Shown here: one piece after another, positions 3,437 through 59,150 of the stretch
How the letters are laid out: each line of letters opens with the position of its first letter
Numbering within the stretch: the first letter of the stretch is position 1
NCBI RefSeq assembly: GCF_058153355.1
Contig: NZ_CM177019.1
Reading direction: 5' to 3' (one strand)
DNA: 64,000 nt
The notes under the pieces: model-generated
What the model saw: the letters and a program-made list of their open reading frames with translations, nothing else
Database searches by the model: none
What the model was told of the DNA's origin: nothing
Made by a program: the position numbers and the translations under genes

Positions 3437-5101
<1,665 letters not shown>

Positions 5102-7128: not shown

Positions 7129-7986
7129 TTAATCCTGTTGTAGCAGGGCAAGATTACGAAAGCACGCTCCCCGCAAGGACTGACGCCAGGTAGTTTCTGT
7201 CCATGGCTGCCCTTTCCATTCACACGTGAAATCAATAAGTTCATCAGGGACATCGCAAACAATGTGAAGACGGATTTCTTCTCTGCCGTGACTCTTTTCA
7301 CTAATTGCGTAACTGTCATGCTCTGGATTATTTAATTCTTTCAGTGAGAATTTTTCCTCAAAGGCTTTATTTAGCCGCCCCTGGTTTCCTTTTACAGCGA
7401 ATAAATAATCACCTCCCTGTTTTTGTATCTTCTCTGCAATATCTTTCTGGCAACCCATCGCATCAGTTGTGATGATTTTTCCTTTAATATCCAGCATGTT
7501 AAGAAGTTCAGGGATAGCTGTAATTTCATTTGATTTCTCATCCGTCCTGATCTGTCCGATGACCAGACTGTGCATTGTTGAGAACGCACTAATGACATGA
7601 ATCGCTCCCCTGCAGCGACTCTTGTCATAAGAATGCCGGAGCTTTTTTCCATCAATTGCAATGACGTCTTTATCATCTGAAGAATGGCAGTCACGCATCC
7701 AGTTAATAAAGCACTCGTGAAATTTTGCAGGACTGATACAGGATACAACTCTGGCAATGGTATCGTGAACAGGAATACCATTTTCAAAATCACCCTATTG
7801 CTTCAAAAAATCGAGATGTGTTTCCCCAAAATCCTCTATATCTTCTCAACCTTCTGCACCCGAAATAACGGCGCAAATAGTCAACAGTAGAATATCCGAT
7901 AATTTATGTTCCACTTTCCAGGCTTGTCTGTAATCGGGGATAATAGAAATATGTTCCATCAATTTTTTAAGTACCATTTTGTTCTC
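7129..7986 (-). pseudogene. Decayed H-repeat (ISAs1-family) transposase: frameshifted and internally deleted
   Basis: N-terminus [43 protein letters not shown] then stop; body in two overlapping frames (7392-7793 and 7129-7698); the canonical C-terminal peptide [12 protein letters not shown] appears out of frame after ...EWKG, indicating an internal deletion. Confidence 0.8.
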
Positions 7987-8370
7987 CTTAATTATGTAAG
8001 GAGTATTTGATCATGTATAAGCAATAAAAAACAGCTTCAGGTAATGAGGAATATCTCAATTTTTAAACATAAAATGCGAATTGTTTAGTACAAAAAAGCA
8101 GCGTTACGTGATCTTTTCCTGCCATGGGTCTTTACCACAGCAGCTGGGGTTGTTTGGGACCGACTTCCGACAGCAGATCCCGGTGAGCCTGCCACCATCT
8201 CTTCACAAGCTTATGCTTATTACATGCAAAACGTCCCGTTTTGCATCTTTGTGCCTACGGCACACGATGATCTTTCCCTGAGGAGTCATACTTTGTTAGG
8301 ATAAAAAACCTTTAAATAGCTTTCCTACCTTCCAATAAAAACCACAGAATCAGCAATGTTTAAATTTCAA

Positions 8371-9192
8371 TCAGTATTGAGTTTCATTTGTGATCTCTAC
8401 ATTCACTCCTGATGGCTTCTCGCTAAATAAATATCTCATACTCTCATTCTCCATAATCACGGATATATTTAACCCTCCATGAATCCATTGATATGTAATA
8501 TTTTTATCATCAATCTTATAACTAAAATTCCCAATTGGTAACTTTTCCTTCAGATAATTATTCTCCTCATAACTAAGTGCTAGTAATTTATCATAGGCAC
8601 CTTTTAAATCAAAACCCTCAAAATAGCAATGTTCTTTTGATGAACCATCAAATTCTTTTCTGGGATTAGCATCATGACACCAAGTCGACCATTTTTCTTT
8701 TTTTTCCTCAGAAGTATGTTTTTTTTCATTGAAAAACAGCACATAATATTTCTCTGGGATTATTATCTGATCATTAATTTTTAAGATATCTCTATATGGC
8801 CCAGGACATTTATGAACAGAATCCATAATGGATATTTCTTCAGGAAAAAGTTTGCCTTCATGTTTAAATAATTTCCTGTACATACCAACTGTTGTTTGTG
8901 ATAAGTAATATGACAAGGGCTTTTTTTTAACTTCAACATAGTCAGTCGAGCATACGAGACTATTTTCCAATGAATAATCATTTATCGTTAGCTTTCGCCC
9001 ATCCATATTTATCACTACCTTACTGTATGTTTCATCAAGGGCACTTATTATAAGCGAATCATGTTTACCAAAAACATCGATATCTGAAACATTATGATAA
9101 ATCCATACGGTATTTTTAGTATTATCATTAGAATATGCGATACCATGAATAAAAAAAATCATTAGAAAGCCCATAAAAAATTTACCGCGCAT
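8371..9192 (-). CDS. Secreted (signal-peptide) protein of unknown function; candidate immunity protein for the upstream effector
   Basis: 273-aa ORF, N-terminal hydrophobic signal peptide (MRGKFFMGFLMIFFIHGIAYS), very AT-rich and K/N/E-rich; AAGGA ribosome-binding site; starts 19 bp after the effector stop. Confidence 0.6.
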   Translation of the reverse strand: MRGKFFMGFLMIFFIHGIAYSNDNTKNTVWIYHNVSDIDVFGKHDSLIISALDETYSKVVINMDGRKLTINDYSLENSLVCSTDYVEVKKKPLSYYLSQTTVGMYRKLFKHEGKLFPEEISIMDSVHKCPGPYRDILKINDQIIIPEKYYVLFFNEKKHTSEEKKEKWSTWCHDANPRKEFDGSSKEHCYFEGFDLKGAYDKLLALSYEENNYLKEKLPIGNFSYKIDDKNITYQWIHGGLNISVIMENESMRYLFSEKPSGVNVEITNETQY

Positions 9193-9211
9193 ACAAATTC
9201 CTTAATGTAAA

Positions 9212-11977
9212 TCAATGTGATGAATCATAAACATTATTCAAAAATAGATTTTGTTCTTTTCGGCGTCGTATAACAAGGCCAGCAACTCCGCCATTTGTAA
9301 TATCAAGAAATTCATTGGAGGCACCTATATAATCCTTTTGATTAAGTTTAGAATTCAAATTCGGTGCCTTACTCATGCTCCCCATATTAAACAATAAACT
9401 TATTAACGCATCAAATTCGTACTGATATAAATCCACACTCACTGTTCTTTTAAGCTCACTAACAAAACCAGATAAACGCTCTTCAAATAACTCATCAGCT
9501 TTAGCAATTGTTATTCCATGCTGAAATTCTTCTGGTAAAACTATATCATTGCAACGTTGTGTAGCAATTAAATGTCCATAACCTATAGTACAGTAACCTT
9601 CTGAATCATTATATGCTGTTAGTTGTAAATATTCCCATTCTTTTATAAAACCCTTACCTTTATTTGATACATTCAAATCTGCAATGGCGATCCTTTCAGC
9701 AGTTTGTTCTTCGTTAAAACTATTGATGTACCCCTCCATCAATATATCAATTGGATCATGTAAATCATCCCGTCTATAAAATGGAGGTATTTGTGTATTA
9801 TTCGGCGGAGGCGCTCCATTGTTTCCTGGATAGTATTCAAAATGCAACATATAAACCACTTCTTCCCCAGGGATTATAACTGGAGGCCTCCCTGTATCAG
9901 GTTTAATCATCAACCCTGTTTTGGCAATTATTGCCCCTTGCATAATATGATCATTAATCTTTACTAAAATACTTGATGGATCAACTTCACCATACCGCAC
10001 ATAGAAATGCCGACCATCTCTAGTCGAGTGCTCAATCGTAACTTGCCAAGTACCGTAATAGTATCGAGAAATAGCTCTTACTATTCCGTTGCAAACCGAA
10101 ACAATATCAGACTTCGGTTCCGTATATAGATCACGCGCTCCATGTTTTCTATTACCATTATTACGATTTCGTCCAAATATAGCTTGAGAGGCATTTCGAT
10201 CTGTCAAGGCAGCAGCCCAAAAATAATTTTTCCACTTTCCATTTTTGTCATTATTAGGTTTTACTTTTAAAGGAAAAATAATTTGATTTGATTTTTTCTG
10301 AGATAATGAATCTAAAAACACAACCGGATGAAAATGCCACACAGCATCATCACTATTAAACGGAGATACCCCGCTCATCCACTCCAGATCCAGCTGCCAC
10401 TTCTCACAGTATGCCACTTCCTCTGTATCCAGATCTTTATAAAATCCTTCCCACCGCCCTGTCGAGCGCCCTCCGTACCATTCGCTGTGGTGTTTAACTA
10501 TCAGATGATTCACCACATTTCTCACCAGTGGTTCACGCACGATCAGCGCCTGTCTGATCTCTTCCTCCGTCACTTTTCCATCACCGTCCTGATCCATACC
10601 CGCCATCAGCTCACGATAAAAGGGCGGTACCTGCTCATACAGCCACTCATCTCCCTGTTCTGCGGCACGGCTTATTGAGTCAAACGCTTCCGGCACCCAT
10701 CCTTCGTACGGGCTGTACGTCATGTCACCGCTGCTGTTCTCCTCCAGCGGTTGAAAACCCAGCTTCAGTAAATCATACTGTCCGGCCTCTTCAACATCCT
10801 TTTGTGGCAGCCAGCCGGTTCCGGTGATATTAAACCACCACTGCTGCGATTCATCCGTGACTGGTGTCGTGGCTTCCCGCGGAAGAACGCGCTGAGCACC
10901 CAGCGTGGCTGCGGTTGCGGTAAATACCTCCTGTCCCGGAACGGCCTGCCGGGTGTATAAAATTATCCCTTTTGGTGCCAGAACAGTCCGTTTTTCTCCC
11001 TTAACGCCTGCCGGGTTGGATAAGAACTTTGGCATATTCGGGTCTGTACTCAGAACCTCCAGATGGACGAACCACTCGCGCTCAATCTCACCGCTTCCCT
11101 CGCCAGGATAATCCTCGCATCCCATAAATCCGACCGGTGTTCCGGCACTGACTTTCCACTCTTCCGTTTCGTCGACCGTCTGTACCGAGTCAAAAATGCC
11201 TTTTGCCTTCGCCTTCTGCATCCACTCAGGCATCAGCATCTGTATTTCGCCATCTGACTCCATCAGATCCGGATCCAGGGTCACCCAGTACTGCTCATTC
11301 CCCGGTTTATTGCCTTCCAGCAGGCGAACCAGTCCGAATGTCGTCAGGACCGGCTGGCCGTTATTGGTCACGTAAAAACGTCCGGTCCGGGATGACACAA
11401 ACCGATCTCCCGCATTAAGTGTCCTGTTTCCGCTGATTTTCGGGGGTATCCAGTACGTGGCATGATCTCCGCTTTCCTGCCCCTCGGGAAGGCCGTTCTT
11501 TCCCGGGATGTATCGGTGCAGCAATATGCCACCATGCCCGGTTTTAACTTTATAGCAGGGGGAGCCGGGATAATCGTTCACCGGGGCCAGATGCATATAG
11601 AGACAGTAAAATTCCAGCCAGCTTTCTTTTTTTTGCGGGTCTGGCTGGCACTGCGATTTCACCAGAACAAATGTGCTGCTGTAACGGAGTTGCTGCCCTT
11701 TGTAGGGGCCTTTCAGGTAATCATTATTTATCCGGTACGCCGCAATGGTGCCATCGGCCATAAACTGAAGAGGAACCGGTTCTCCGGTAGCGGCGGTATC
11801 CGGTTTCAGGGCTGATAACGGATTAGACACGTCACTGATATGTATCCCGCCGTGCCACAGCCCGTTTCCACCCAGCAGCCAGGTTCCGTGCGCTTCTTTG
11901 TCAATAAGCCGCATTATCTCATCCAGTGAGCGAAACTCTTTGCCTTCTTTATCCCTGATGGGATGGCTGATTTTCAT
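9212..11977 (-). CDS. Candidate T6SS cargo effector: multidomain peptidoglycan hydrolase (M23/LytM-like domain plus C-terminal T4-lysozyme-like GH24 domain), with an EF-hand-like loop
   Basis: 921-aa ORF starting 9 bp after the vgrG stop with an AAGGA ribosome-binding site; C-terminus carries the phage-lysozyme signature EWEYLQLTAYNDSEGYCTIGYGHL; middle region has KHGARD (HxxxD) ... YMLHFEY (M23-like); DQDGDGKVTEEE calcium-binding-type loop. Confidence 0.7.
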   Translation of the reverse strand: MKISHPIRDKEGKEFRSLDEIMRLIDKEAHGTWLLGGNGLWHGGIHISDVSNPLSALKPDTAATGEPVPLQFMADGTIAAYRINNDYLKGPYKGQQLRYSSTFVLVKSQCQPDPQKKESWLEFYCLYMHLAPVNDYPGSPCYKVKTGHGGILLHRYIPGKNGLPEGQESGDHATYWIPPKISGNRTLNAGDRFVSSRTGRFYVTNNGQPVLTTFGLVRLLEGNKPGNEQYWVTLDPDLMESDGEIQMLMPEWMQKAKAKGIFDSVQTVDETEEWKVSAGTPVGFMGCEDYPGEGSGEIEREWFVHLEVLSTDPNMPKFLSNPAGVKGEKRTVLAPKGIILYTRQAVPGQEVFTATAATLGAQRVLPREATTPVTDESQQWWFNITGTGWLPQKDVEEAGQYDLLKLGFQPLEENSSGDMTYSPYEGWVPEAFDSISRAAEQGDEWLYEQVPPFYRELMAGMDQDGDGKVTEEEIRQALIVREPLVRNVVNHLIVKHHSEWYGGRSTGRWEGFYKDLDTEEVAYCEKWQLDLEWMSGVSPFNSDDAVWHFHPVVFLDSLSQKKSNQIIFPLKVKPNNDKNGKWKNYFWAAALTDRNASQAIFGRNRNNGNRKHGARDLYTEPKSDIVSVCNGIVRAISRYYYGTWQVTIEHSTRDGRHFYVRYGEVDPSSILVKINDHIMQGAIIAKTGLMIKPDTGRPPVIIPGEEVVYMLHFEYYPGNNGAPPPNNTQIPPFYRRDDLHDPIDILMEGYINSFNEEQTAERIAIADLNVSNKGKGFIKEWEYLQLTAYNDSEGYCTIGYGHLIATQRCNDIVLPEEFQHGITIAKADELFEERLSGFVSELKRTVSVDLYQYEFDALISLLFNMGSMSKAPNLNSKLNQKDYIGASNEFLDITNGGVAGLVIRRRKEQNLFLNNVYDSSH

Positions 11978-11986
11978 GTTCAGTCC

Positions 11987-14186
11987 TTATCGTGAGAATC
12001 TTCCCGGCCGTTGTGGCGGTACCTTATCCTGCTGGGGAGGATCAAAGGCTTCCTGTACACTTTTCCGTGGTGGCTCCGCCCCTTCAGTTCCAGGTCCGCC
12101 ATTGTCATAATCTGCCAGCGCTTTCAAAACCGCCGGTCGTAGCGTCGGCACCGGCGTTCCCGGACTACCGCCGCTATTGAGATTGATTTTCGGCCCGACG
12201 ATGTCCACGCCCCCTGAATGGATGACCACAAACGAACCACCCACCTTTAGGGTGATTTTACCGCCACTCTCCAGTACGATTTCATTCCGGACCTTCATTC
12301 CCAGCGCACCGGTAATCTTCCTCGCCAGGTCGCCCTTCACCTCCAGACTGTGCTTTCCCTCCACCAGGCTGATATGGTTCCCCGTCGTCTTATGCTCCTG
12401 CTTCCCTTCCACCGTCACTTTACGGTCGTTTCTGACATACAGGCCGTCATCGTGACTCACGCTCACCGTCCGGTCATTCGTCACCTTCAGCGTCTGGTCA
12501 TTACGTACCGTTATGCGCCGGTCGTTCGCCACCGTGATACTCTGGTCGTGACCCCCTTCTTTTCTGGTGCCGACCTCAACCGTCTGCCCCTTCACCACCC
12601 TTATCTTCTGGTCGTTACCGATGGTCTCCGTATGGTCATGCTTCACGTCCGTCGTCCGGTCGTTAAGCACCTCCGTGTCCATGTTCTTCTGCGCGTGGAT
12701 ATACACCTGCTCACTGTCCGTCGCATCCTCGAAACGCAGTTCATTAAAGCCGCTTCCTTTATAGGTCTTCGAGCGGATGGTCATCTGCGTCCGCGTGCCC
12801 GGTAAATCCCCCGGTGAACGGTTATCTTCATGGTAGGTCCGCCCCGTCACAATGGGCTGGTCCGGGTCGCCGTTCAGAAAGTCCACTATCACTTCCTGAC
12901 CCACACGCGGTATCGCCAGATTGCCGAACCCCGGTCCCGCCCATGCCTGCGACACCCGTATCCAGCACGAACTCTCCTCCGTCATCCCGTGATAACGGTC
13001 CCAGTGAAACTTCACCCGTACCCGGCCATGCTCGTCGCAGAATATCTCCTCACCCTTCGGCCCGGTCACGATGGCACTCTGCGGGCCGTCCACCTTCGGC
13101 TTCGGCAGCGGCGCGTGACGCCACGTCCTGTCTGCCGGTATCACCTCAAACTGATTGCTCAGTGTCGTCCCTTCACCGTGACTCCCGTGCAGCGCCTGCG
13201 GCTGTTCTCCCCGCAGTGTGCTTCCCACAACCTGCCATTCCCGGTTCAGCGTCTCTGAGGGATGGCCCGTCAGCCGGAACCGCGTTCCCGGCCACAGCCG
13301 CGCCGTGTTACACACCCCGCTCGCCGTCTCCGCCCCGTTCCGCCACCCTTCCGTCTGGTAACGCGCAAAATCCTGGCCATGCTGCTCATCCTTGAAACGC
13401 CCCGGATAATCAAATATCTCGTACTGCGTTCCCTGCCCGTTCAGGCTCTCCCCGTCATGGCTGTAGTACCCCGGCCACCCCGGCGTTTTGAACGTATAAT
13501 CCTGCGTCTCCACCGACGCCACGCTTATCTGCGCACGGTAACGAAACTCACTGATGTACTCCGTCGTTCCCCCGGTCGTGGTATTCGGGTTAAACGCCAG
13601 CGCCCCCATTCCCGTCAGCCCCGCCACGTCATCACACACCGCCAGCTTCTGCTCCGGCCCTTCCTGACCGCAGCGCTCATAAAAGAAGATACCTTCCTCC
13701 GCCCACAGCCGGGTCAGGAATGCCAGGTCGCTCTCCCCGTACTGCACGCAGAACTCCCGCGCCGGGTGCGCCTCATAGAACAGCGGCATCCACGCCGTCA
13801 CCCCGTTCTCTCTCAGAAGCTGTGCTGATATCGTCTGAATGTCCTGCTGCTGGAAGATACGGAAGTTCTGCCGTAACCCTGCCCGCCACAGCGGCGGGCT
13901 GATGCTCAGGGAATAACGCATCTGCCAGTCGTTGTTCTCACCGAGCTGCACCTCCGTCACGATACCGCTGACGTAACGCTGCGGGATATCACCCTGCCAG
14001 ACCGTCAGCACCGCGCTCTTCTCCAGAAAATCCTCCGCCATCAGGTCGGACAGCCCGCTGGCGATATCCACATCCAGGATGAACGACGTGCAGTGGTGCT
14101 GGTACAGACGGAAGCTCACCACCGCCGTCGCCATCTCCACGATACCGTCCACCGACAGCGTGAAACGTAATCCTTCTGAGGACATA
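11987..14186 (-). CDS. vgrG: Type VI secretion spike protein VgrG (gp27/gp5-like)
   Basis: About 733 aa from MSSEGLRFTL; characteristic VgrG N-terminus, gp5-like beta-helix repeats (VTVxNDRxxTV...) and Pro-rich C-terminal tail; the maximal ORF extends 11 codons further upstream. Confidence 0.85.
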
Positions 14187-14360
14187 TAAACCCCATAGCT
14201 ACCGCACTCATGGTGCAAACCATACGGGCTTATAAGAAAGGCTTAAGTGAGATATCTGCCAGATAGCAACTATTAGGAAAATATTTATATATATTTCATG
14301 AATATATATTTCGGTTGGTATAACGGTGTCTAAATATTCCTCTGAACATCTTCCTGATAC

Positions 14361-28394: not shown

Positions 28395-28493
28395 GCCGGA
28401 TGCGGCGTGAACGCCTTATCCGTCCTACAAAATAGTGCAAATTCAATATATTGCACCATCCTCGTAGGCCTGATGAACGTAGCGTATCAGGCT
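28395..28493. repeat. REP/BIME cluster (two inverted REP units)
   Basis: gccggatgcggcgtgaacgccttatccg..cctac and gtaggcctgatgaacgtagcgtatcaggc. Confidence 0.8.
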
Positions 28494-44107: not shown

Positions 44108-44180
44108 ATACCACCCACGTCTGCGGACGTGGTTGGCTCTGATGACAAACGCCAAACTGCCTGATGCGCTACGCTTATCA

Positions 44181-45407
<1,227 letters not shown>

Positions 45408-45783
45408 CATGCCTGCAATCTGGGAAACCGGGGTAGAAAAAAACTTGCAGGCCATAACAGTATCTACGCAGCTCCTGCAATATATTGAATTTTCATGCTT
45501 TTGTAGGCAGGATAAGGCGTTCACGCCGCATCCGGCATGAACAAATCGCACTTTGTCAGCAATTTGGCCCCCGTAAAATATAACCATTTAATAAAACCCG
45601 CTAAAAATTATCGATTCATCAATAAATACATCCTCACACCAGACCTTTTTTCACCAATCGACAATCACCATTACGTTTTTTATTCCCCCCCTGCCAAATC
45701 GCTTGCGCACAGTGCTGCTTTGCGGCATTTTTTTAAACAAGCAAACACAACAAGCAACAAATACCAGGTTAACGGAGAAGGTT

Positions 45784-47448
45784 ATGTGTTCAATTTTTGG
45801 CGTATTCGATATCAAAACAGACGCAGTTGAGCTGCGTAAGAAAGCACTCGAGCTGTCACGCCTGATGCGTCATCGTGGCCCGGACTGGTCCGGTATTTAT
45901 GCCAGCGATAACGCCATTCTCGCCCACGAACGTCTGTCCATTGTTGACGTTAACGCGGGGGCGCAACCTCTCTACAACCAACAAAAAACGCATGTGCTGG
46001 CGGTAAACGGTGAAATCTACAACCACCAGGCATTGCGCGCTGAATATGGCGATCGTTACCAGTTCCAGACCGGGTCTGACTGTGAAGTGATCCTCGCGCT
46101 GTATCAGGAAAAAGGGCCGGAATTTCTCGACGATTTGCAGGGCATGTTCGCTTTTGCCCTGTACGACAGCGAAAAAGATGCGTATCTGATTGGTCGCGAC
46201 CATCTGGGGATCATCCCACTGTATATGGGCTATGACGAACATGGTCAGCTGTATGTGGCCTCAGAAATGAAAGCCCTGGTGCCGGTATGCCGCACGATTA
46301 AAGAGTTCCCGGCGGGGAGCTATTTGTGGAGTCAGGACGGCGAAATCCGTTCTTATTATCACCGCGACTGGTTCGACTACGATGCGGTGAAAGATAACGT
46401 GACCGACAAAAACGAGCTGCGTCAGGCGCTGGAAGATTCCGTTAAAAGCCATCTGATGTCTGACGTGCCTTACGGTGTGCTGCTTTCTGGTGGTCTGGAT
46501 TCCTCAATTATTTCCGCGATCACCAAGAAATACGCCGCCCGTCGCGTGGAAGATCAGGAACGCTCTGAAGCCTGGTGGCCGCAGCTGCACTCCTTTGCTG
46601 TAGGTCTGCCGGGTTCACCGGATCTGAAGGCAGCCCAGGAAGTGGCAAACCATCTGGGCACTGTGCATCATGAAATTCACTTCACTGTACAGGAAGGTCT
46701 GGATGCCATCCGCGATGTTATTTACCACATCGAAACCTATGACGTGACGACTATCCGCGCTTCAACGCCGATGTATTTAATGTCGCGTAAGATCAAGGCG
46801 ATGGGCATTAAAATGGTGCTGTCCGGTGAAGGTTCTGATGAAGTGTTTGGCGGTTATCTCTACTTCCACAAAGCACCAAACGCCAAAGAGCTACATGAAG
46901 AGACGGTGCGTAAACTGCTGGCCCTGCATATGTATGATTGCGCGCGTGCCAACAAAGCGATGTCAGCCTGGGGCGTGGAAGCGCGCGTTCCGTTCCTCGA
47001 CAAGAAATTCCTCGACGTGGCAATGCGTATTAACCCACAGGATAAAATGTGCGGTAACGGCAAAATGGAAAAACACATCCTGCGTGAATGTTTTGAAGCG
47101 TATCTGCCTGCAAGCGTGGCCTGGCGGCAGAAAGAGCAGTTTTCCGATGGCGTCGGTTACAGTTGGATAGACACTCTGAAAGAAGTGGCGGCGCAGCAGG
47201 TTTCTGATCAACAACTGGAAACTGCCCGTTTCCGCTTCCCGTACAACACGCCGACCTCAAAAGAAGCGTATCTGTACCGGGAGATCTTTGAAGAACTGTT
47301 CCCGCTACCGAGCGCCGCTGAGTGTGTACCGGGCGGCCCGTCCGTCGCGTGTTCTTCCGCTAAAGCGATTGAATGGGATGAGGCGTTCAAGAAAATGGAC
47401 GATCCGTCTGGTCGTGCGGTTGGCGTTCACCAGTCGGCCTATAAGTAA
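45784..47448 (+). CDS. asnB: Asparagine synthetase B (glutamine-hydrolysing)
   Basis: 554 aa from MCSIFGVFDIK (N-terminal nucleophile Cys2); maximal ORF over-extends. Confidence 0.9.
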   Translation: MCSIFGVFDIKTDAVELRKKALELSRLMRHRGPDWSGIYASDNAILAHERLSIVDVNAGAQPLYNQQKTHVLAVNGEIYNHQALRAEYGDRYQFQTGSDCEVILALYQEKGPEFLDDLQGMFAFALYDSEKDAYLIGRDHLGIIPLYMGYDEHGQLYVASEMKALVPVCRTIKEFPAGSYLWSQDGEIRSYYHRDWFDYDAVKDNVTDKNELRQALEDSVKSHLMSDVPYGVLLSGGLDSSIISAITKKYAARRVEDQERSEAWWPQLHSFAVGLPGSPDLKAAQEVANHLGTVHHEIHFTVQEGLDAIRDVIYHIETYDVTTIRASTPMYLMSRKIKAMGIKMVLSGEGSDEVFGGYLYFHKAPNAKELHEETVRKLLALHMYDCARANKAMSAWGVEARVPFLDKKFLDVAMRINPQDKMCGNGKMEKHILRECFEAYLPASVAWRQKEQFSDGVGYSWIDTLKEVAAQQVSDQQLETARFRFPYNTPTSKEAYLYREIFEELFPLPSAAECVPGGPSVACSSAKAIEWDEAFKKMDDPSGRAVGVHQSAYK

Positions 47449-47826
47449 GAAAGGCGGTACTGCCCCGGAGAAATCCGGGGCTGTTTCAGTTATTGAGCTG
47501 CTTGTTGATTCTCATATGCAGTAAGGAAATGTTCCGGGTTTGCCACATCACTGTTTGACAACTCATCACTGTAGGCCAGTACTTCATAGATTAATTTCCT
47601 ACCACTATTGTTGAATTCCGAATTTCATCCTGTATGACAAAAGAATGGCTGTAGGGTGGGGAAAAAACACAAAGTAAACAATAATTGACGAATATAGCGC
47701 CACGCTGTTCGCAACCTAACCAAACAGTCACTTTCGAGCAATTTTCCTTGAAAAAGAGGTTGACGCTGCAAGGCTCTATACGCATAATGCGCCCCGCAAC
47801 GCCGATAAGGTATCGCGAAAAAAAGA

Positions 47827-47903
47827 TGGCTACGTAGCTCAGTTGGTTAGAGCACATCACTCATAATGATGGGGTCACAGGTTCGAATCCCGTCGTAGCC
47901 ACC
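47827..47903 (+). tRNA. metT: tRNA-Met (elongator, anticodon CAU)
   Basis: 77-nt cloverleaf ggctacgtagctcag...ctCATaa...gtagccacca. Confidence 0.9.
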
Positions 47904-47911
47904 ATCTTTTT

Positions 47912-47996
47912 TGCGGGAGTGGCGAAATTGGTAGACGCACCAGATTTAGGTTCTGGCGCCGCAAGGTGTGCGAGTTCAAGTCTCGCCTCCCGCACC
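47912..47996 (+). tRNA. leuW: tRNA-Leu (anticodon UAG)
   Basis: 85-nt sequence with long variable arm, ends ...cccgcacca. Confidence 0.85.
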
Positions 47997-48019
47997 ATTC
48001 ACCAGAAAGCGTTGTACGG

Positions 48020-48094
48020 ATGGGGTATCGCCAAGCGGTAAGGCACCGGTTTTTGATACCGGCATTCCCTGGTTCGAATCCAGGTACCCCAGCC
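48020..48094 (+). tRNA. glnU: tRNA-Gln (anticodon UUG)
   Basis: 75-nt tggggtatcgccaagcggtaaggcaccggtttTTGat... Confidence 0.9.
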
Positions 48095-48129
48095 ATCTTC
48101 TTCGAATAAGCGGTTCACCGCCCGGTTAT

Positions 48130-48204
48130 TGGGGTATCGCCAAGCGGTAAGGCACCGGTTTTTGATACCGGCATTCCCTGGTTCGAATCCAGGTACCCCA
48201 GCCA
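48130..48204 (+). tRNA. glnW: tRNA-Gln (anticodon UUG), tandem copy
   Basis: Identical to the 48020-48094 copy. Confidence 0.9.
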
Positions 48205-48219
48205 TCGAAGAAACAATCT

Positions 48220-48296
48220 GGCTACGTAGCTCAGTTGGTTAGAGCACATCACTCATAATGATGGGGTCACAGGTTCGAATCCCGTCGTAGCCACCA
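48220..48296 (+). tRNA. metU: tRNA-Met (elongator, anticodon CAU), second copy
   Basis: Identical to the 47827-47903 copy. Confidence 0.9.
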
Positions 48297-48344
48297 AATT
48301 CTGAATGTGTCGAATGCGTTCGGCAAATTCACAAACCAATTTGT

Positions 48345-48419
48345 TGGGGTATCGCCAAGCGGTAAGGCACCGGATTCTGATTCCGGCATTCCGAGGTTCG
48401 AATCCTCGTACCCCAGCCA
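48345..48419 (+). tRNA. glnV: tRNA-Gln (anticodon CUG)
   Basis: 75-nt ...ccggattCTGattccgg... Confidence 0.9.
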
Positions 48420-48456
48420 ATTTATTCAAGACGCTTATATTGTAAGTGCACCCAGT

Positions 48457-48531
48457 TGGGGTATCGCCAAGCGGTAAGGCACCGGATTCTGATTCCGGCA
48501 TTCCGAGGTTCGAATCCTCGTACCCCAGCCA
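48457..48531 (+). tRNA. glnX: tRNA-Gln (anticodon CUG), tandem copy
   Basis: Identical to the 48345-48419 copy. Confidence 0.9.
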
Positions 48532-48540
48532 CATTAAAAA

Positions 48541-48570
48541 AACTCGCTTCGGCGAGCTTTTTGCTTTTCT
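48541..48570 (+). terminator. Rho-independent terminator closing the tRNA operon
   Basis: ctcgcttcggcgag hairpin followed by ctttttgcttttc. Confidence 0.75.
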
Positions 48571-48619
48571 GCGTATATTCAATGTCGAATGCGATGTTGA
48601 CACGTCTTATTCTTCAAAG

Positions 48620-48655
48620 TCGGATGCGACGCTGATGCGTCTTATCCGACCTACA
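48620..48655. repeat. REP element
   Basis: gtcggatgcgacgctgatgcgtcttatccgacctac. Confidence 0.75.
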
Positions 48656-48684
48656 GTTGGCATGCATCCGTCAATGTTGTAAGG

Positions 48685-49860
48685 CTACAACCCTAACGCA
48701 TATTTCAGCGCCTGCCGTTTCAATACGCCAGCACGCTCCGCCGCCATTAACCCGAGATTACGCATAAAACGCAGTGGCGGCAGATTATTGCTGAATCCGG
48801 CATAAAACAGATCCATACCGCTTTGCATAATGAAGTTATCCGCCATACGCCGCATCTGGTAACGCTTGAGGACAGGATAACTGGCCCACGCTTCACCGTA
48901 GCTGCGGGCATTCACCAGAACGTCAATCAGCGCATCAACATCGCGATAACCGAGGTTAACCCCCTGCCCCGCCAACGGATGAATGGTGTGCGCGGCATCG
49001 CCCACCAGCGCAAGCCCTGGTTGCACATACTGCAACGCATGGCGGCGCGTCAGCGGAAACGCACCAGCGGCGAGTGGCATCACGTACCCAAGACGCGACG
49101 GGAAATGCTTCGCGATTTCCGCCTGTAACTGCGCCATATTCATATTCTGCAACTGGCGAATGCGTGCCGGAGAGTCATACCACACCAGCGATGCCCAGTT
49201 ATCAAACAGCGGCAGAAACGCACGAGGTCCATCCGGGGTAAATTGCTGCCAGGTGCTGTCGCCGGGATCGTTCTCACACTGTACGCTAATCAACATACAC
49301 GACTGTGCATACTGCCAGGCATGAACGCCAATTCCCGCCATCTGCCGCACCTGCGAATTTGCGCCGTCGGCACCAATCACCAGCTTCGCGCGGATCGTTT
49401 CACCGCCCTTCAGTTCCAGCTCCTGAAGATCATTATGGCGATGCAGCGCAATCAGCGAGCCTGGCACACGTAACGTTACTTTCGGATGCGCTTCCAGCGC
49501 CTGCCACAGCGCCTGTTGCAGGACAGTGTTTTCCACCATATAGCCAAGCAACGGCAGCTTCAATTCGGCTGCATCAAACACCACATGCGCCGTTTCCCAC
49601 TCCCACGTTTCCAGTCTGCGATAAGGATGGCAACGCATGGCCTGTACCGCGTCCCAGACGCCTAAACCTTTAAGCAATGATACCGAAGCCGCACTAATCG
49701 CCGAGATCCGCACGTCAGGCTGGCTGTCAGCGACAAACGGTGCAGGTTGGGCATGTTCGATAACCGTTACCGAAAATCCGTGCTGAGCCAGTCCCAGCGC
49801 CAGTGCGCCGCCGACCATTCCTCCGCCGACAATGGCAATTTCCGTTGGTTGATTTGTCAT
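48685..49860 (-). CDS. ubiF: 2-octaprenyl-3-methyl-6-methoxy-1,4-benzoquinol hydroxylase
   Basis: 391 aa from MTNQPTEIAIVGGGMVGG (FAD-binding GxGxxG). Confidence 0.85.
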   Translation of the reverse strand: MTNQPTEIAIVGGGMVGGALALGLAQHGFSVTVIEHAQPAPFVADSQPDVRISAISAASVSLLKGLGVWDAVQAMRCHPYRRLETWEWETAHVVFDAAELKLPLLGYMVENTVLQQALWQALEAHPKVTLRVPGSLIALHRHNDLQELELKGGETIRAKLVIGADGANSQVRQMAGIGVHAWQYAQSCMLISVQCENDPGDSTWQQFTPDGPRAFLPLFDNWASLVWYDSPARIRQLQNMNMAQLQAEIAKHFPSRLGYVMPLAAGAFPLTRRHALQYVQPGLALVGDAAHTIHPLAGQGVNLGYRDVDALIDVLVNARSYGEAWASYPVLKRYQMRRMADNFIMQSGMDLFYAGFSNNLPPLRFMRNLGLMAAERAGVLKRQALKYALGL

Positions 49861-50005
49861 GGTCAATCATCCTGTTAGCAATATGCTTTAAGTTTACAGG
49901 ATTTTTACCCCCAAGGGCTGATAACGCTCATACTGGTCACAACGGCAGCAAAGCATTACACTATGCGCCCTGCATTCCTGGCTACTATTTCGCAAGAGCA
50001 AGTCG

Positions 50006-58081: not shown

Positions 58082-58990
58082 ATGCAATTACGTAAACCTG
58101 CCACAGCAATCCTGGCCCTGGCGCTTTCCGCAGGACTGGCACAGGCAGATGACGCCGCCCCGGCAGCAGGCAGTACGCTGGACAAAATCGCCAAAAACGG
58201 TGTGATTGTCGTCGGTCACCGTGAATCTTCAGTACCTTTCTCTTATTACGACAATCAGCAAAAAGTGGTGGGTTACTCGCAGGATTACTCCAACGCCATT
58301 GTTGAAGCAGTGAAAAAGAAACTCAACAAACCGGACTTGCAGGTGAAATTGATTCCGATCACCTCACAAAACCGTATTCCGCTGCTGCAAAACGGCACTT
58401 TCGATTTTGAATGTGGTTCTACCACCAACAACGTCGAACGCCAGAAACAGGCGGCTTTCTCCGACACTATTTTCGTGGTCGGTACGCGCCTGCTGACAAA
58501 AAAAGGCGGCGATATTAAAGATTTTGCCGATCTGAAAGACAAAGCCGTCGTAGTCACTTCCGGCACCACCTCTGAAGTTTTGCTCAACAAACTGAATGAA
58601 GAGCAAAAAATGAACATGCGCATCATCAGCGCCAAAGATCACGGTGACTCTTTCCGCACCCTGGAAAGCGGTCGTGCCGTTGCCTTTATGATGGATGACG
58701 CTCTGTTAGCCGGTGAGCGAGCGAAAGCGAAGAAACCAGACAACTGGGAAATCGTCGGCAAGCCGCAGTCTCAGGAAGCCTACGGTTGCATGTTGCGTAA
58801 AGACGATCCGCAGTTCAAAAAGCTGATGGATGACACTATCGCTCAGGTGCAGACCTCCGGTGAAGCGGAAAAATGGTTTGATAAGTGGTTCAAAAATCCA
58901 ATTCCGCCGAAAAACCTGAACATGAATTTCGAACTGTCGGACGAAATGAAAGCACTGTTCAAAGAACCGAATGACAAGGCACTGAACTAA
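58082..58990 (+). CDS. gltI: Glutamate/aspartate ABC transporter periplasmic binding protein
   Basis: 302 aa from MQLRKPATAILALALSAGLAQA (signal peptide). Confidence 0.9.
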   Translation: MQLRKPATAILALALSAGLAQADDAAPAAGSTLDKIAKNGVIVVGHRESSVPFSYYDNQQKVVGYSQDYSNAIVEAVKKKLNKPDLQVKLIPITSQNRIPLLQNGTFDFECGSTTNNVERQKQAAFSDTIFVVGTRLLTKKGGDIKDFADLKDKAVVVTSGTTSEVLLNKLNEEQKMNMRIISAKDHGDSFRTLESGRAVAFMMDDALLAGERAKAKKPDNWEIVGKPQSQEAYGCMLRKDDPQFKKLMDDTIAQVQTSGEAEKWFDKWFKNPIPPKNLNMNFELSDEMKALFKEPNDKALN

Positions 58991-58994
58991 TTAC

Positions 58995-59150
58995 AAGAAC
59001 CAGGGGCGGAAATTCCAGCCCTCTCGATTGTTACGTAGCACGGACAGACTATACGCCTGATGGTCGTTCCCCATCGGGCCTGAAAACCGCAATACGCTGG
59101 GTAACAATCTTCGAGGGTAGCAGTTAACGCTGCTACCCTTTTTTTTCTGG
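58995..59150 (+). ncRNA. sroC: Candidate SroC-type sRNA from the gltI-gltJ spacer
   Basis: 169-bp structured intergenic segment ending in a strong terminator hairpin gggtagcagttaacgctgctaccc plus T8. Confidence 0.45.

Follow-up and report, generated by a model that had tools for sequence, protein, structure and literature searches.

The locus analyzed here was a cluster of tRNA genes in a 64-kb stretch of DNA, which we refer to as the window. ARAGORN, applied to the whole window, called exactly seven tRNA genes, all of them on the plus strand and located between positions 47828 and 48531. Rfam model RF00005 scored the seven genes at 57.6 to 71.1 bits (gathering score, 29), and the CCA end was encoded in all seven, as read directly from the sequence. 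The two independent methods yielded the same calls in the same order on a single strand, Met(CAU)-Leu(UAG)-Gln(UUG)-Gln(UUG)-Met(CAU)-Gln(CUG)-Gln(CUG), which agreed with the seven-tRNA operon described in an earlier note on this DNA. The genes and the putative signals around them were as follows, with the basis of each assignment in parentheses.

47760..47797, plus strand: putative promoter, with the -35 element TTGACG at 47760-47765, a 17-nt spacer, and the -10 element CATAAT at 47783-47788 (consensus and conservation)
47789-47797, plus strand: G+C-rich discriminator GCGCCCCGC (located directly after the -10 element)
47798..47827, plus strand: 5' leader, ending in the A-run AAAAAAAGAT (the A-run is complementary to the U-run after metT)
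47828..47904, plus strand: metT, elongator tRNA-Met(CAU), encoded CCA (ARAGORN, Rfam; the same as K-12 metT)
47913..47997, plus strand: leuW, tRNA-Leu(UAG), encoded CCA (ARAGORN, Rfam; the same as K-12 leuW)
48021..48095, plus strand: glnU, tRNA-Gln(UUG) (ARAGORN, Rfam, alignment, K-12 comparison)
48130..48204, plus strand: glnW, tRNA-Gln(UUG), the same as glnU in sequence (ARAGORN, Rfam, alignment, K-12 comparison)
48220..48296, plus strand: metU, elongator tRNA-Met(CAU), the same as metT in sequence (ARAGORN, Rfam, alignment, K-12 comparison)
48303..48330, plus strand: small predicted hairpin in the metU-glnV spacer (consensus fold of 7 Enterobacteriaceae sequences)
48345..48419, plus strand: glnV, tRNA-Gln(CUG), the supE locus (ARAGORN, Rfam, alignment, K-12 annotation and comparison)
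48432..48448, plus strand: small predicted hairpin in the glnV-glnX spacer, CGCTTA-TATTG-TAAGTG (consensus fold of 8 sequences)
48457..48531, plus strand: glnX, tRNA-Gln(CUG), the same as glnV in sequence (ARAGORN, Rfam, alignment, K-12 comparison)
48543..48563, plus strand: putative Rho-independent terminator, CTCGC-TTCG-GCGAG followed by CTTTTTG (terminator scan; sequence signal)
48578..48655, plus strand: two tandem REP-like units, 48578-48610 (degenerate) and 48613-48655 (direct-repeat family D3, 82% identity)

The paralogous genes in the cluster were identical to each other, as the earlier note had indicated: metT matched metU at 77 of 77 nt, and the glnU/glnW and glnV/glnX pairs each matched at 75 of 75 nt. 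The Gln(UUG) and Gln(CUG) genes differed at 7 of 75 positions (columns 30, 33, 38, 49, 50, 62, and 63). In tRNA numbering, the change from Gln(UUG) to Gln(CUG) consisted of the wobble base (U34 versus C34) and three base-pair swaps, namely, U-A to A-U at 31-39, C-G to G-C at 50-64, and U-A to A-U at 51-63. The differences were confined to the anticodon region and the T-arm, which was also in line with the note.

Many short open reading frames (ORFs) crossed the tRNA cluster on both strands, and the longest of these (116 amino acids) spanned 48253-48603 on the minus strand. In five RefSeq genomes, K-12 among them, no annotated CDS overlapped the tRNA genes, and the four longest overlapping ORFs yielded no Pfam match. 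Given zero Pfam hits, the idea that these ORFs have protein-coding potential was dropped, and the view that they are artifacts was upheld.

We compared the locus with the metT operon of K-12 MG1655, in which glnX, glnV, metU, glnW, glnU, leuW, and metT occupy minus-strand positions 696430-697133, with ubiF and asnB on either side. In the window, the cluster was flanked by ORFs at 45703-47448 (plus strand) and 48685-49866 (minus strand), and the matching RefSeq genomes had asnB and ubiF at the corresponding positions. The gene order, anticodons, strand logic, asnB/ubiF flanks, and seven tRNA sequences were common to both loci, and the promoter block and terminator hairpin of K-12 matched those of the window. 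Pairwise alignment revealed 0 differences across the 544 nt of tRNA genes and about 19 point or indel differences, all of which were in the leader, spacers, and trailer. The leader contained 7 A nucleotides in the window but 8 in K-12, and 6 rather than 7 T nucleotides followed metT. The metU-glnV spacer contained GTCGAATGCG in the window versus ATCGAATATG in K-12, and the base of the terminator stem was A in the window versus G in K-12. The window's strain also differed from K-12 in carrying an IS621 element upstream, between nagD and asnB.

A search of complete Escherichia coli genomes matched the 1.1-kb locus in 5424 of 5426, and the match was nearly full length in 5278. The best E. coli match over the locus was 99.5% rather than 100%, and thus the exact strain was absent from the genome collection. 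By every feature tested (order, sequence, context, and signals), the locus belongs to the known metT operon, and no evidence contradicting this identification was found. We consider it nearly certain that the locus is the E. coli metT operon, a long-known part of the core chromosome, and this confidence takes in the evolutionary account given below. The operon here is already known, and there is nothing new in the locus itself. As a discovery it carries little weight, given that the operon was sequenced in 1981 (Nakajima, Ozeki and Shimura, Cell 23:239, as cited in PMC4041420) and that there are already detailed studies of how it is processed and why it is essential. For annotation, the identification marks core E. 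coli chromosome, rules out the overlapping ORFs, and anchors the window between asnB and ubiF.

The putative promoter was the only sigma-70-like site in the region from 47400 to 48800 and matched 10 of 12 consensus positions. The block GTTGAC...CGCATAATGCGCCCCGCAAC(G/A)CCGA was nearly invariant from Escherichia to Pantoea, Photorhabdus, and Acerihabitans. We infer promoter function and the transcription start from these sequence features. Stable-RNA promoters under stringent control are usually marked by a G+C-rich discriminator, and the operon may be under stringent or growth-rate control via its own.

Downstream of the promoter, a 17-nt inverted repeat that was 88% complementary connected the leader to the metT trailer (47813-47829 and 47902-47918), and the minimum-free-energy fold paired the leader A-run with the U-run following metT. 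The window has one A and one T fewer than K-12 in these runs, and we considered whether this was a compensating indel in the leader/trailer helix. This idea was rejected because the combinations varied freely: among six E. coli sequences, A-runs of 7 or 8 and T-runs of 6 or 7 occurred together in three of the four possible ways, and the fourth was seen in Citrobacter werkmanii. E. albertii had 8 A in the leader and 5 T after metT. Covariation of the two run lengths was unsupported, as the lengths varied independently among E. coli strains.

At the other end of the operon, a terminator scan identified the hairpin CTCGCTTCGGCGAG followed by a T-run at 48543-48556. Escherichia, Citrobacter, Superficieibacter, and Enterobacter BIGb0383 all retained this hairpin; in Enterobacter Ag1 and Pantoea, its place was taken by another G+C hairpin with a T-run.

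In K-12, the seven genes are cotranscribed as one precursor that is processed by RNase E and RNase P; the last three tRNAs are separated by RNase E, and the first five are separated, and their 5' ends made, by RNase P (PMC2241853, PMC4191395, PMC9841416). RNase E removes the metT operon terminator (PMC2241853), its cuts have been mapped 2 nt and 39 nt downstream of metU (PMC4191395), and it depends on the adjacent glnW tRNA as a determinant of binding (PMC9841416). As the sole source of elongator tRNA-Met, both tRNA-Gln species, and tRNA-Leu(UAG), all genes for which it holds, the operon is essential (PMC11480407, PMC6265465).

We assume that cotranscription and processing by RNase E and RNase P carry over to the window, given that its tRNA genes do not differ from those of K-12 and that the two loci have matching promoter blocks and terminator hairpins. 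One sigma-70 promoter (47760-47797) would then drive a single transcript of about 0.75 kb ending at the hairpin and T-run at 48543-48563. RNase E would act first, taking the terminator off and cutting in the metU-glnV and glnV-glnX spacers. RNase P would act next and generate every mature 5' end, so that the upstream five tRNAs come apart, and 3' exonucleases would trim the products to the encoded CCA.

The mapped RNase E cuts 2 and 39 nt 3' of metU (PMC4191395) flank the predicted hairpin in the metU-glnV spacer. In the alignment of seven Enterobacteriaceae sequences from which the structure itself was derived, this hairpin had 9 pairs, 2 of which were changed on both sides, and a variable loop. 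The glnV-glnX hairpin had 6 pairs, 3 of which were changed on both sides, in a small sample of eight sequences that likewise supplied the structure; 95.8% of cells were paired, versus 23 to 50% when the partners were slid by 1 to 3 columns. As a lead only, these results suggest that both spacer hairpins may keep their pairing through compensatory changes across Enterobacteriaceae.

The papers cited above on the operon do not describe this pairing and assign no processing or regulatory role to either hairpin. Other E. coli polycistronic tRNA operons with spacers or trailers that give rise to functional RNA are comparable cases: they too are multi-tRNA transcripts, with A/U-rich spacers that are cut by RNase E and with small conserved spacer hairpins. 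One of them, glyW-cysT-leuZ, yields the functional 3'ETS-leuZ sponge (Lalaouna 2015, as cited in PMC9514646). For the metT operon, neither the present analysis nor the cited papers show any function or accumulation of a spacer fragment. We regard it as a speculative and rather unlikely idea that the hairpins are RNase E processing determinants or that they stabilize pieces of spacer that, once excised, have a small-RNA regulatory role like that of 3'ETS-leuZ.

The earlier note had drawn attention to a short motif in the metU-glnV spacer that recurs beyond the terminator. The 10-mer GTCGAATGCG did occur exactly twice in the window, at 48309-48318 and 48584-48593; the note had placed the first copy at 48311-48320, which was off by 2 nt. 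The run shared by the two sites was 11 nt, TGTCGAATGCG. When the 386 nt outside the tRNA genes at the locus were shuffled 2000 times, 23 of the shuffled sequences contained an exact repeat of at least 11 nt. Hence the 11-mer match was nominally unusual in the window's strain; it was the sole such motif there and did not hold up in other strains.

The downstream copy of GTCGAATGCG (48584-48593) formed the head of the degenerate REP unit at 48578-48610, beyond the terminator. Both REP-like units sit between the terminator and the ubiF stop codon and are outside the functional core of the transcript. A REP element is an extragenic unit of about 35 nt that has a conserved tail ending in CTTATCCGRCCTAC and is dispersed in many copies. 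In agreement with this consensus, the unit at 48613-48655 was extragenic and ended in GCGTCTTATCCGACCTAC, and the REP tail GCGTCTTATCCGRCCTAC had 5 matches in the window versus 0.05 expected. The curated Rfam model naRNA4, for a REP-derived RNA, scored the REP region at 32.7 bits (E = 0.0025), which is below its gathering score of 59.5.

The spacer copy of GTCGAATGCG (48309-48318) corresponded to the 5' arm and loop of the metU-glnV hairpin. The stem of this hairpin was conserved, and the variable bases, which were polymorphic in E. coli, were in the loop. Four alleles of the metU-glnV spacer were found in E. coli, namely, GTCGAATGCG, GTCGAATACG (ending in ACG), GTCGAATATG (ending in ATG), and ATCGAATATG (K-12), and the series was linked by single transitions. 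Only about 255 of 5416 genomes shared 99% or more identity with the window over this spacer, a threshold that corresponds to the window's allele or one base off. E. albertii carried GTCGAACAAG at the motif site, and Citrobacter and Enterobacter diverged further.

These observations bear on two related explanations for the match: that GTCGAATGCG is a functional motif, such as a processing or protein-binding signal, or that a short gene conversion tract carried it into the spacer from the REP-like unit lying 275 bp downstream. In their favor, the two sites share an exact 11-mer, a length reached in few of the shuffles, and three clustered spacer differences from K-12 create the match. However, the GCG, ACG, and ATG intermediates in E. 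coli fit stepwise transitions rather than one conversion event, and the window's allele or its nearest neighbors account for only about 255 of the 5416 genomes. Moreover, the conserved part of the spacer site is the stem and not the variable loop bases of GTCGAATGCG, and the downstream copy is part of a degenerate REP unit past the terminator. We consider both explanations quite improbable. The possibility that the spacer copy is a REP remnant was rejected as well; this copy consists of one arm and the loop of a hairpin, varies within E. coli, and resembles REP sequence in no more than the 11-mer. Judged from the sequences compared, the match appears to be a coincidence of one lineage.

The broader proposal that the spacers reuse conserved motifs did not hold up. 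The spacer copy of the motif varied within E. coli and between genera, and no significant similarity between spacers was found in 28 pairwise comparisons, the lowest p value being 0.019 (leader versus trailer).

To place the cluster in an evolutionary context, one genome per species was scanned for the Leu(UAG) anticodon arm, and tRNA detection was run on the gammaproteobacterial loci. The scan returned mostly Alphaproteobacteria, in which Leu(UAG) stood by itself or had other surroundings; the informative gammaproteobacterial loci numbered only about 38. The architectures found were as follows.

E. albertii, two Citrobacter species, and Enterobacter Ag1: all seven genes of the E. coli arrangement
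Enterobacter BIGb0383: a six-gene cluster with a single Gln(UUG)
Superficieibacter: an eight-gene cluster in which three Gln(CUG) genes are separated by two 69-nt spacers of identical sequence
Pantoea, Photorhabdus cinerea, and Acerihabitans: a six-gene cluster with a single Gln(CUG)
Pasteurellaceae: Met-Leu-Gln-Gln, with one further gene, Gln(CUG), in Necropsobacter
Vibrio species: repeated (Met-Leu-Gln)n arrays, without Gln(CUG)

The gammaproteobacterial clusters shared a Met(CAU)-Leu(UAG)-Gln(UUG) core in the same order in Enterobacterales, Pasteurellaceae, and Vibrio. They differed from the E. coli operon in copy number; Gln copies varied by genus, and the clusters held 6, 7, or 8 genes. 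The identical 69-nt spacers of Superficieibacter are the mark of a fresh tandem duplication, and tandem duplication and loss of units are real and ongoing at the locus across lineages. The earlier note had described the cluster as a record of tandem duplication. This description was correct in that the cluster was built by tandem duplication, as indicated by the Vibrio arrays, the variation in Gln copy number, and Superficieibacter, but the identity of the copies was not a record of recent duplication.

The reading implied by the earlier note was that the identical copies are recent tandem duplicates of whole units, spacers included. It would account for the 100% identity of the copies, and a recent duplication did occur at this locus elsewhere, in Superficieibacter. 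Junction counts also suggested copy-number variation in E. coli: the glnU-glnW junction was absent in 85 and the glnV-glnX junction in 159 of 5426 genomes, and some genomes held up to 3 to 4 copies of a junction, but these counts are upper bounds only. The one "deleted" genome that was inspected, WB61, was without any Gln(UUG) gene, had a damaged Leu gene, and looked like an assembly collapse, as some of the other absences may be. On the other side, no window spacer resembled another, and the 16 nt upstream of the two Met genes matched at 10 of 16 positions, which was not significant. Duplication of whole units including spacers was rejected because there was no significant local alignment between paralogous spacers. 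The window spacers were unrelated to each other, yet they were alignable with the corresponding Citrobacter and Enterobacter spacers. Because the seven-gene layout and alignable spacers were common to E. albertii, Citrobacter, and Enterobacter, the duplications must be old and predate these genera. We consider recent duplication of the window's copies very improbable.

The substitution patterns pointed to concerted evolution of the copies. Paralogs were usually identical within a genome and shared lineage-specific substitutions. For example, both Met copies carried C16 in C. werkmanii and Enterobacter Ag1, and both Gln(UUG) genes shared 7 to 8 changes in an Enterobacterales MAG, Photorhabdus cinerea, and Pasteurellaceae. 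Both Gln(CUG) copies had an A30/T38 form in E. coli and a T25/T27/A41 form in Citrobacter FP75 and Enterobacter Ag1, and C. werkmanii had one Gln(CUG) gene of each form. In this small sample, paralogs were closer to each other within a genome than orthologs were between genomes, despite the older duplication. Based on about 10 genera and a handful of substitutions, the copies bear the signature of concerted evolution, probably through gene conversion plus purifying selection. Repeated loss and reduplication, instead of gene conversion, would be less parsimonious.

We propose that the operon grew by tandem duplication from an old Met-Leu-Gln core and that one Gln lineage gained C34. Purifying selection on the tRNA, together with gene conversion from copy to copy, would have held the old copies identical, and the spacers would have drifted freely except for the small hairpins. 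The comparison provides a compact worked example of bacterial tRNA family evolution, in which an ancient Met-Leu-Gln core was repeatedly duplicated and pruned, paralogs were homogenized by gene conversion, and isoacceptors were set apart by compensated stem swaps and an anticodon change.

An alternative is that these tRNA genes are not core chromosome but came from a phage or an island, by horizontal transfer or as a mobile array. In its favor one could cite the IS621 element and REP sequences nearby and a few matches on plasmids (6 of 28336 places). This alternative has almost no chance of being correct and for practical purposes is refuted by universal presence and conserved synteny: the cluster is found between asnB and ubiF throughout essentially all E. 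coli and also in related genera, the only genes for three essential tRNA species lie in it (PMC11480407, PMC6265465), and no integrase or phage genes adjoin it.

The anticodon switching proposed in the earlier note was borne out in part. Gln(CUG) is a Gln(UUG) paralog with a U34-to-C34 change, but this change is only one of the seven differences. The other six are three compensated pair swaps, which implies that the Gln isoacceptors diverged long ago. A change from UUG-Gln to CUG-Gln is listed among the gains by duplication plus anticodon mutation in a large-scale survey (PMC4041420). In several lineages, the T-stem of Gln(CUG) was the same as that of the Gln(UUG) gene in its own genome, and the A31-U39 pair went with the CUG anticodon. 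The T-stem pattern suggests partial conversion between isoacceptors or a repeated origin of Gln(CUG) from Gln(UUG).

Compensatory changes maintained the pairing in two small hairpins of the metT operon RNA, one in the metU-glnV spacer and the other in the glnV-glnX spacer, among seven to eight Enterobacteriaceae sequences. RNase E cleavage has been mapped at +2 and +39 relative to the end of metU (PMC4191395), and the metU-glnV hairpin lay between these two sites. The spacer hairpins were as follows:

48110-48121, + strand, hairpin GCGGTTCACCGC in the glnU-glnW spacer, in which no covariation was found
48303-48330, + strand, small hairpin in the metU-glnV spacer, with compensatory changes
48432-48448, + strand, small hairpin in the glnV-glnX spacer, with compensatory changes

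The terminal A-run of the metT leader (47813-47829, + strand) was complementary to the U-run after metT (47902-47918, + strand), and pairing between the two runs lengthened the acceptor helix in the predicted fold. This complementarity was conserved across Enterobacterales, and the lengths of the A-run and the U-run varied independently between E. coli strains.

Variants of the tRNA cluster were observed in other species. In Orbaceae bacterium ESL0727 (locus L035, 11259-11990), the gene order was Met-Leu(UAG)-Gln(UUG)-Leu(CAG)-Gln(CUG), and the Leu(CAG) gene, which was of the 85-nt type, was identical to the adjoining Leu(UAG) gene at 71 of 85 positions. The gene order and the Leu identity suggested that a Leu-Gln unit was duplicated and that two parallel U34-to-C34 shifts followed. 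In Escherichia albertii (locus L044, 8783-8886), the leuW-glnU spacer was 104 nt compared to 23 nt, and the extra 81 nt opened with TGGGG, which resembled the start of a Gln gene. The additional sequence may have arisen through an insertion that duplicated its target, or it may be a Gln copy that has decayed.

Within E. coli, apart from Met and a single Gln(CUG), the only tRNA gene of the cluster in the WB61 assembly was a Leu gene whose T-arm was damaged. As it stands, this cluster would lack a reader of CAA codons; therefore, it is probably a collapsed repeat. Between asnB and metT, both WB61 and EC42405 carried a hypothetical gene of 145 aa that was absent from the window and from K-12. The coordinates for the reduced cluster and the hypothetical gene were 1335-1601 in comparison locus L126 (E. 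coli WB61) and 3460-3897 in comparison locus L001. In K-12 J53, TP6-3, and EC600 (matches H93, H101, and H108 of the junction search), only one annotated tRNA-Gln lay under the glnV-glnX junction. If glnV in these strains had the supE44 amber-suppressor anticodon and the annotation pipeline left that gene unlabelled as Gln, a single annotation would follow.

An insertion element of roughly 44110-45700 was located upstream of asnB. Its transposase gene lay between nagD and asnB, the matching RefSeq gene was named "IS110-like element IS621 family transposase," and a match to the entire nagD-IS621-asnB stretch was present in approximately 1222 of the 5426 complete E. coli genomes.

44378-45358, + strand, IS110-family transposase, 326 aa, with Pfam DEDD_Tnp_IS110 and Transposase_20
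45503-45520, - strand, match to the conserved end (tail) of repetitive extragenic palindromic (REP) elements, beside IS621

The region 8371-14218 (- strand) resembled a type VI secretion module of the orphan kind, at a place that would be occupied by rhsC in K-12. A group II intron match lay immediately downstream, no reverse-transcriptase ORF was found near it, and this match and the adjoining transposase ORF are probably a mobile-element remnant. The 273-aa ORF of the module may encode an immunity protein.

Within 8371-14218, - strand, VgrG-like spike, 743 aa, with Phage_GPD and Gp5 domains
Within 8371-14218, - strand, next, 921-aa protein that has a phage-lysozyme domain and, below the cutoff, a match to M23 peptidase
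Within 8371-14218, - strand, next, 273-aa ORF, no match in a Pfam search
8079-8196, - strand, group II intron D1-D4-2 (Rfam, 42.9 bits; gathering threshold, 36)
7129-7698, - strand, truncated DDE transposase ORF, 189 aa

Matches to the sroC sRNA and to ES036/CssrF were also present, and a REP-tail match (28411-28428) directly preceded the latter. The sroC match would be expected to lie in the gltI-gltJ region.

58986-59148, + strand, sroC sRNA, full-length, 173.9 bits
28429-28471, + strand, ES036/CssrF, 45.5 bits
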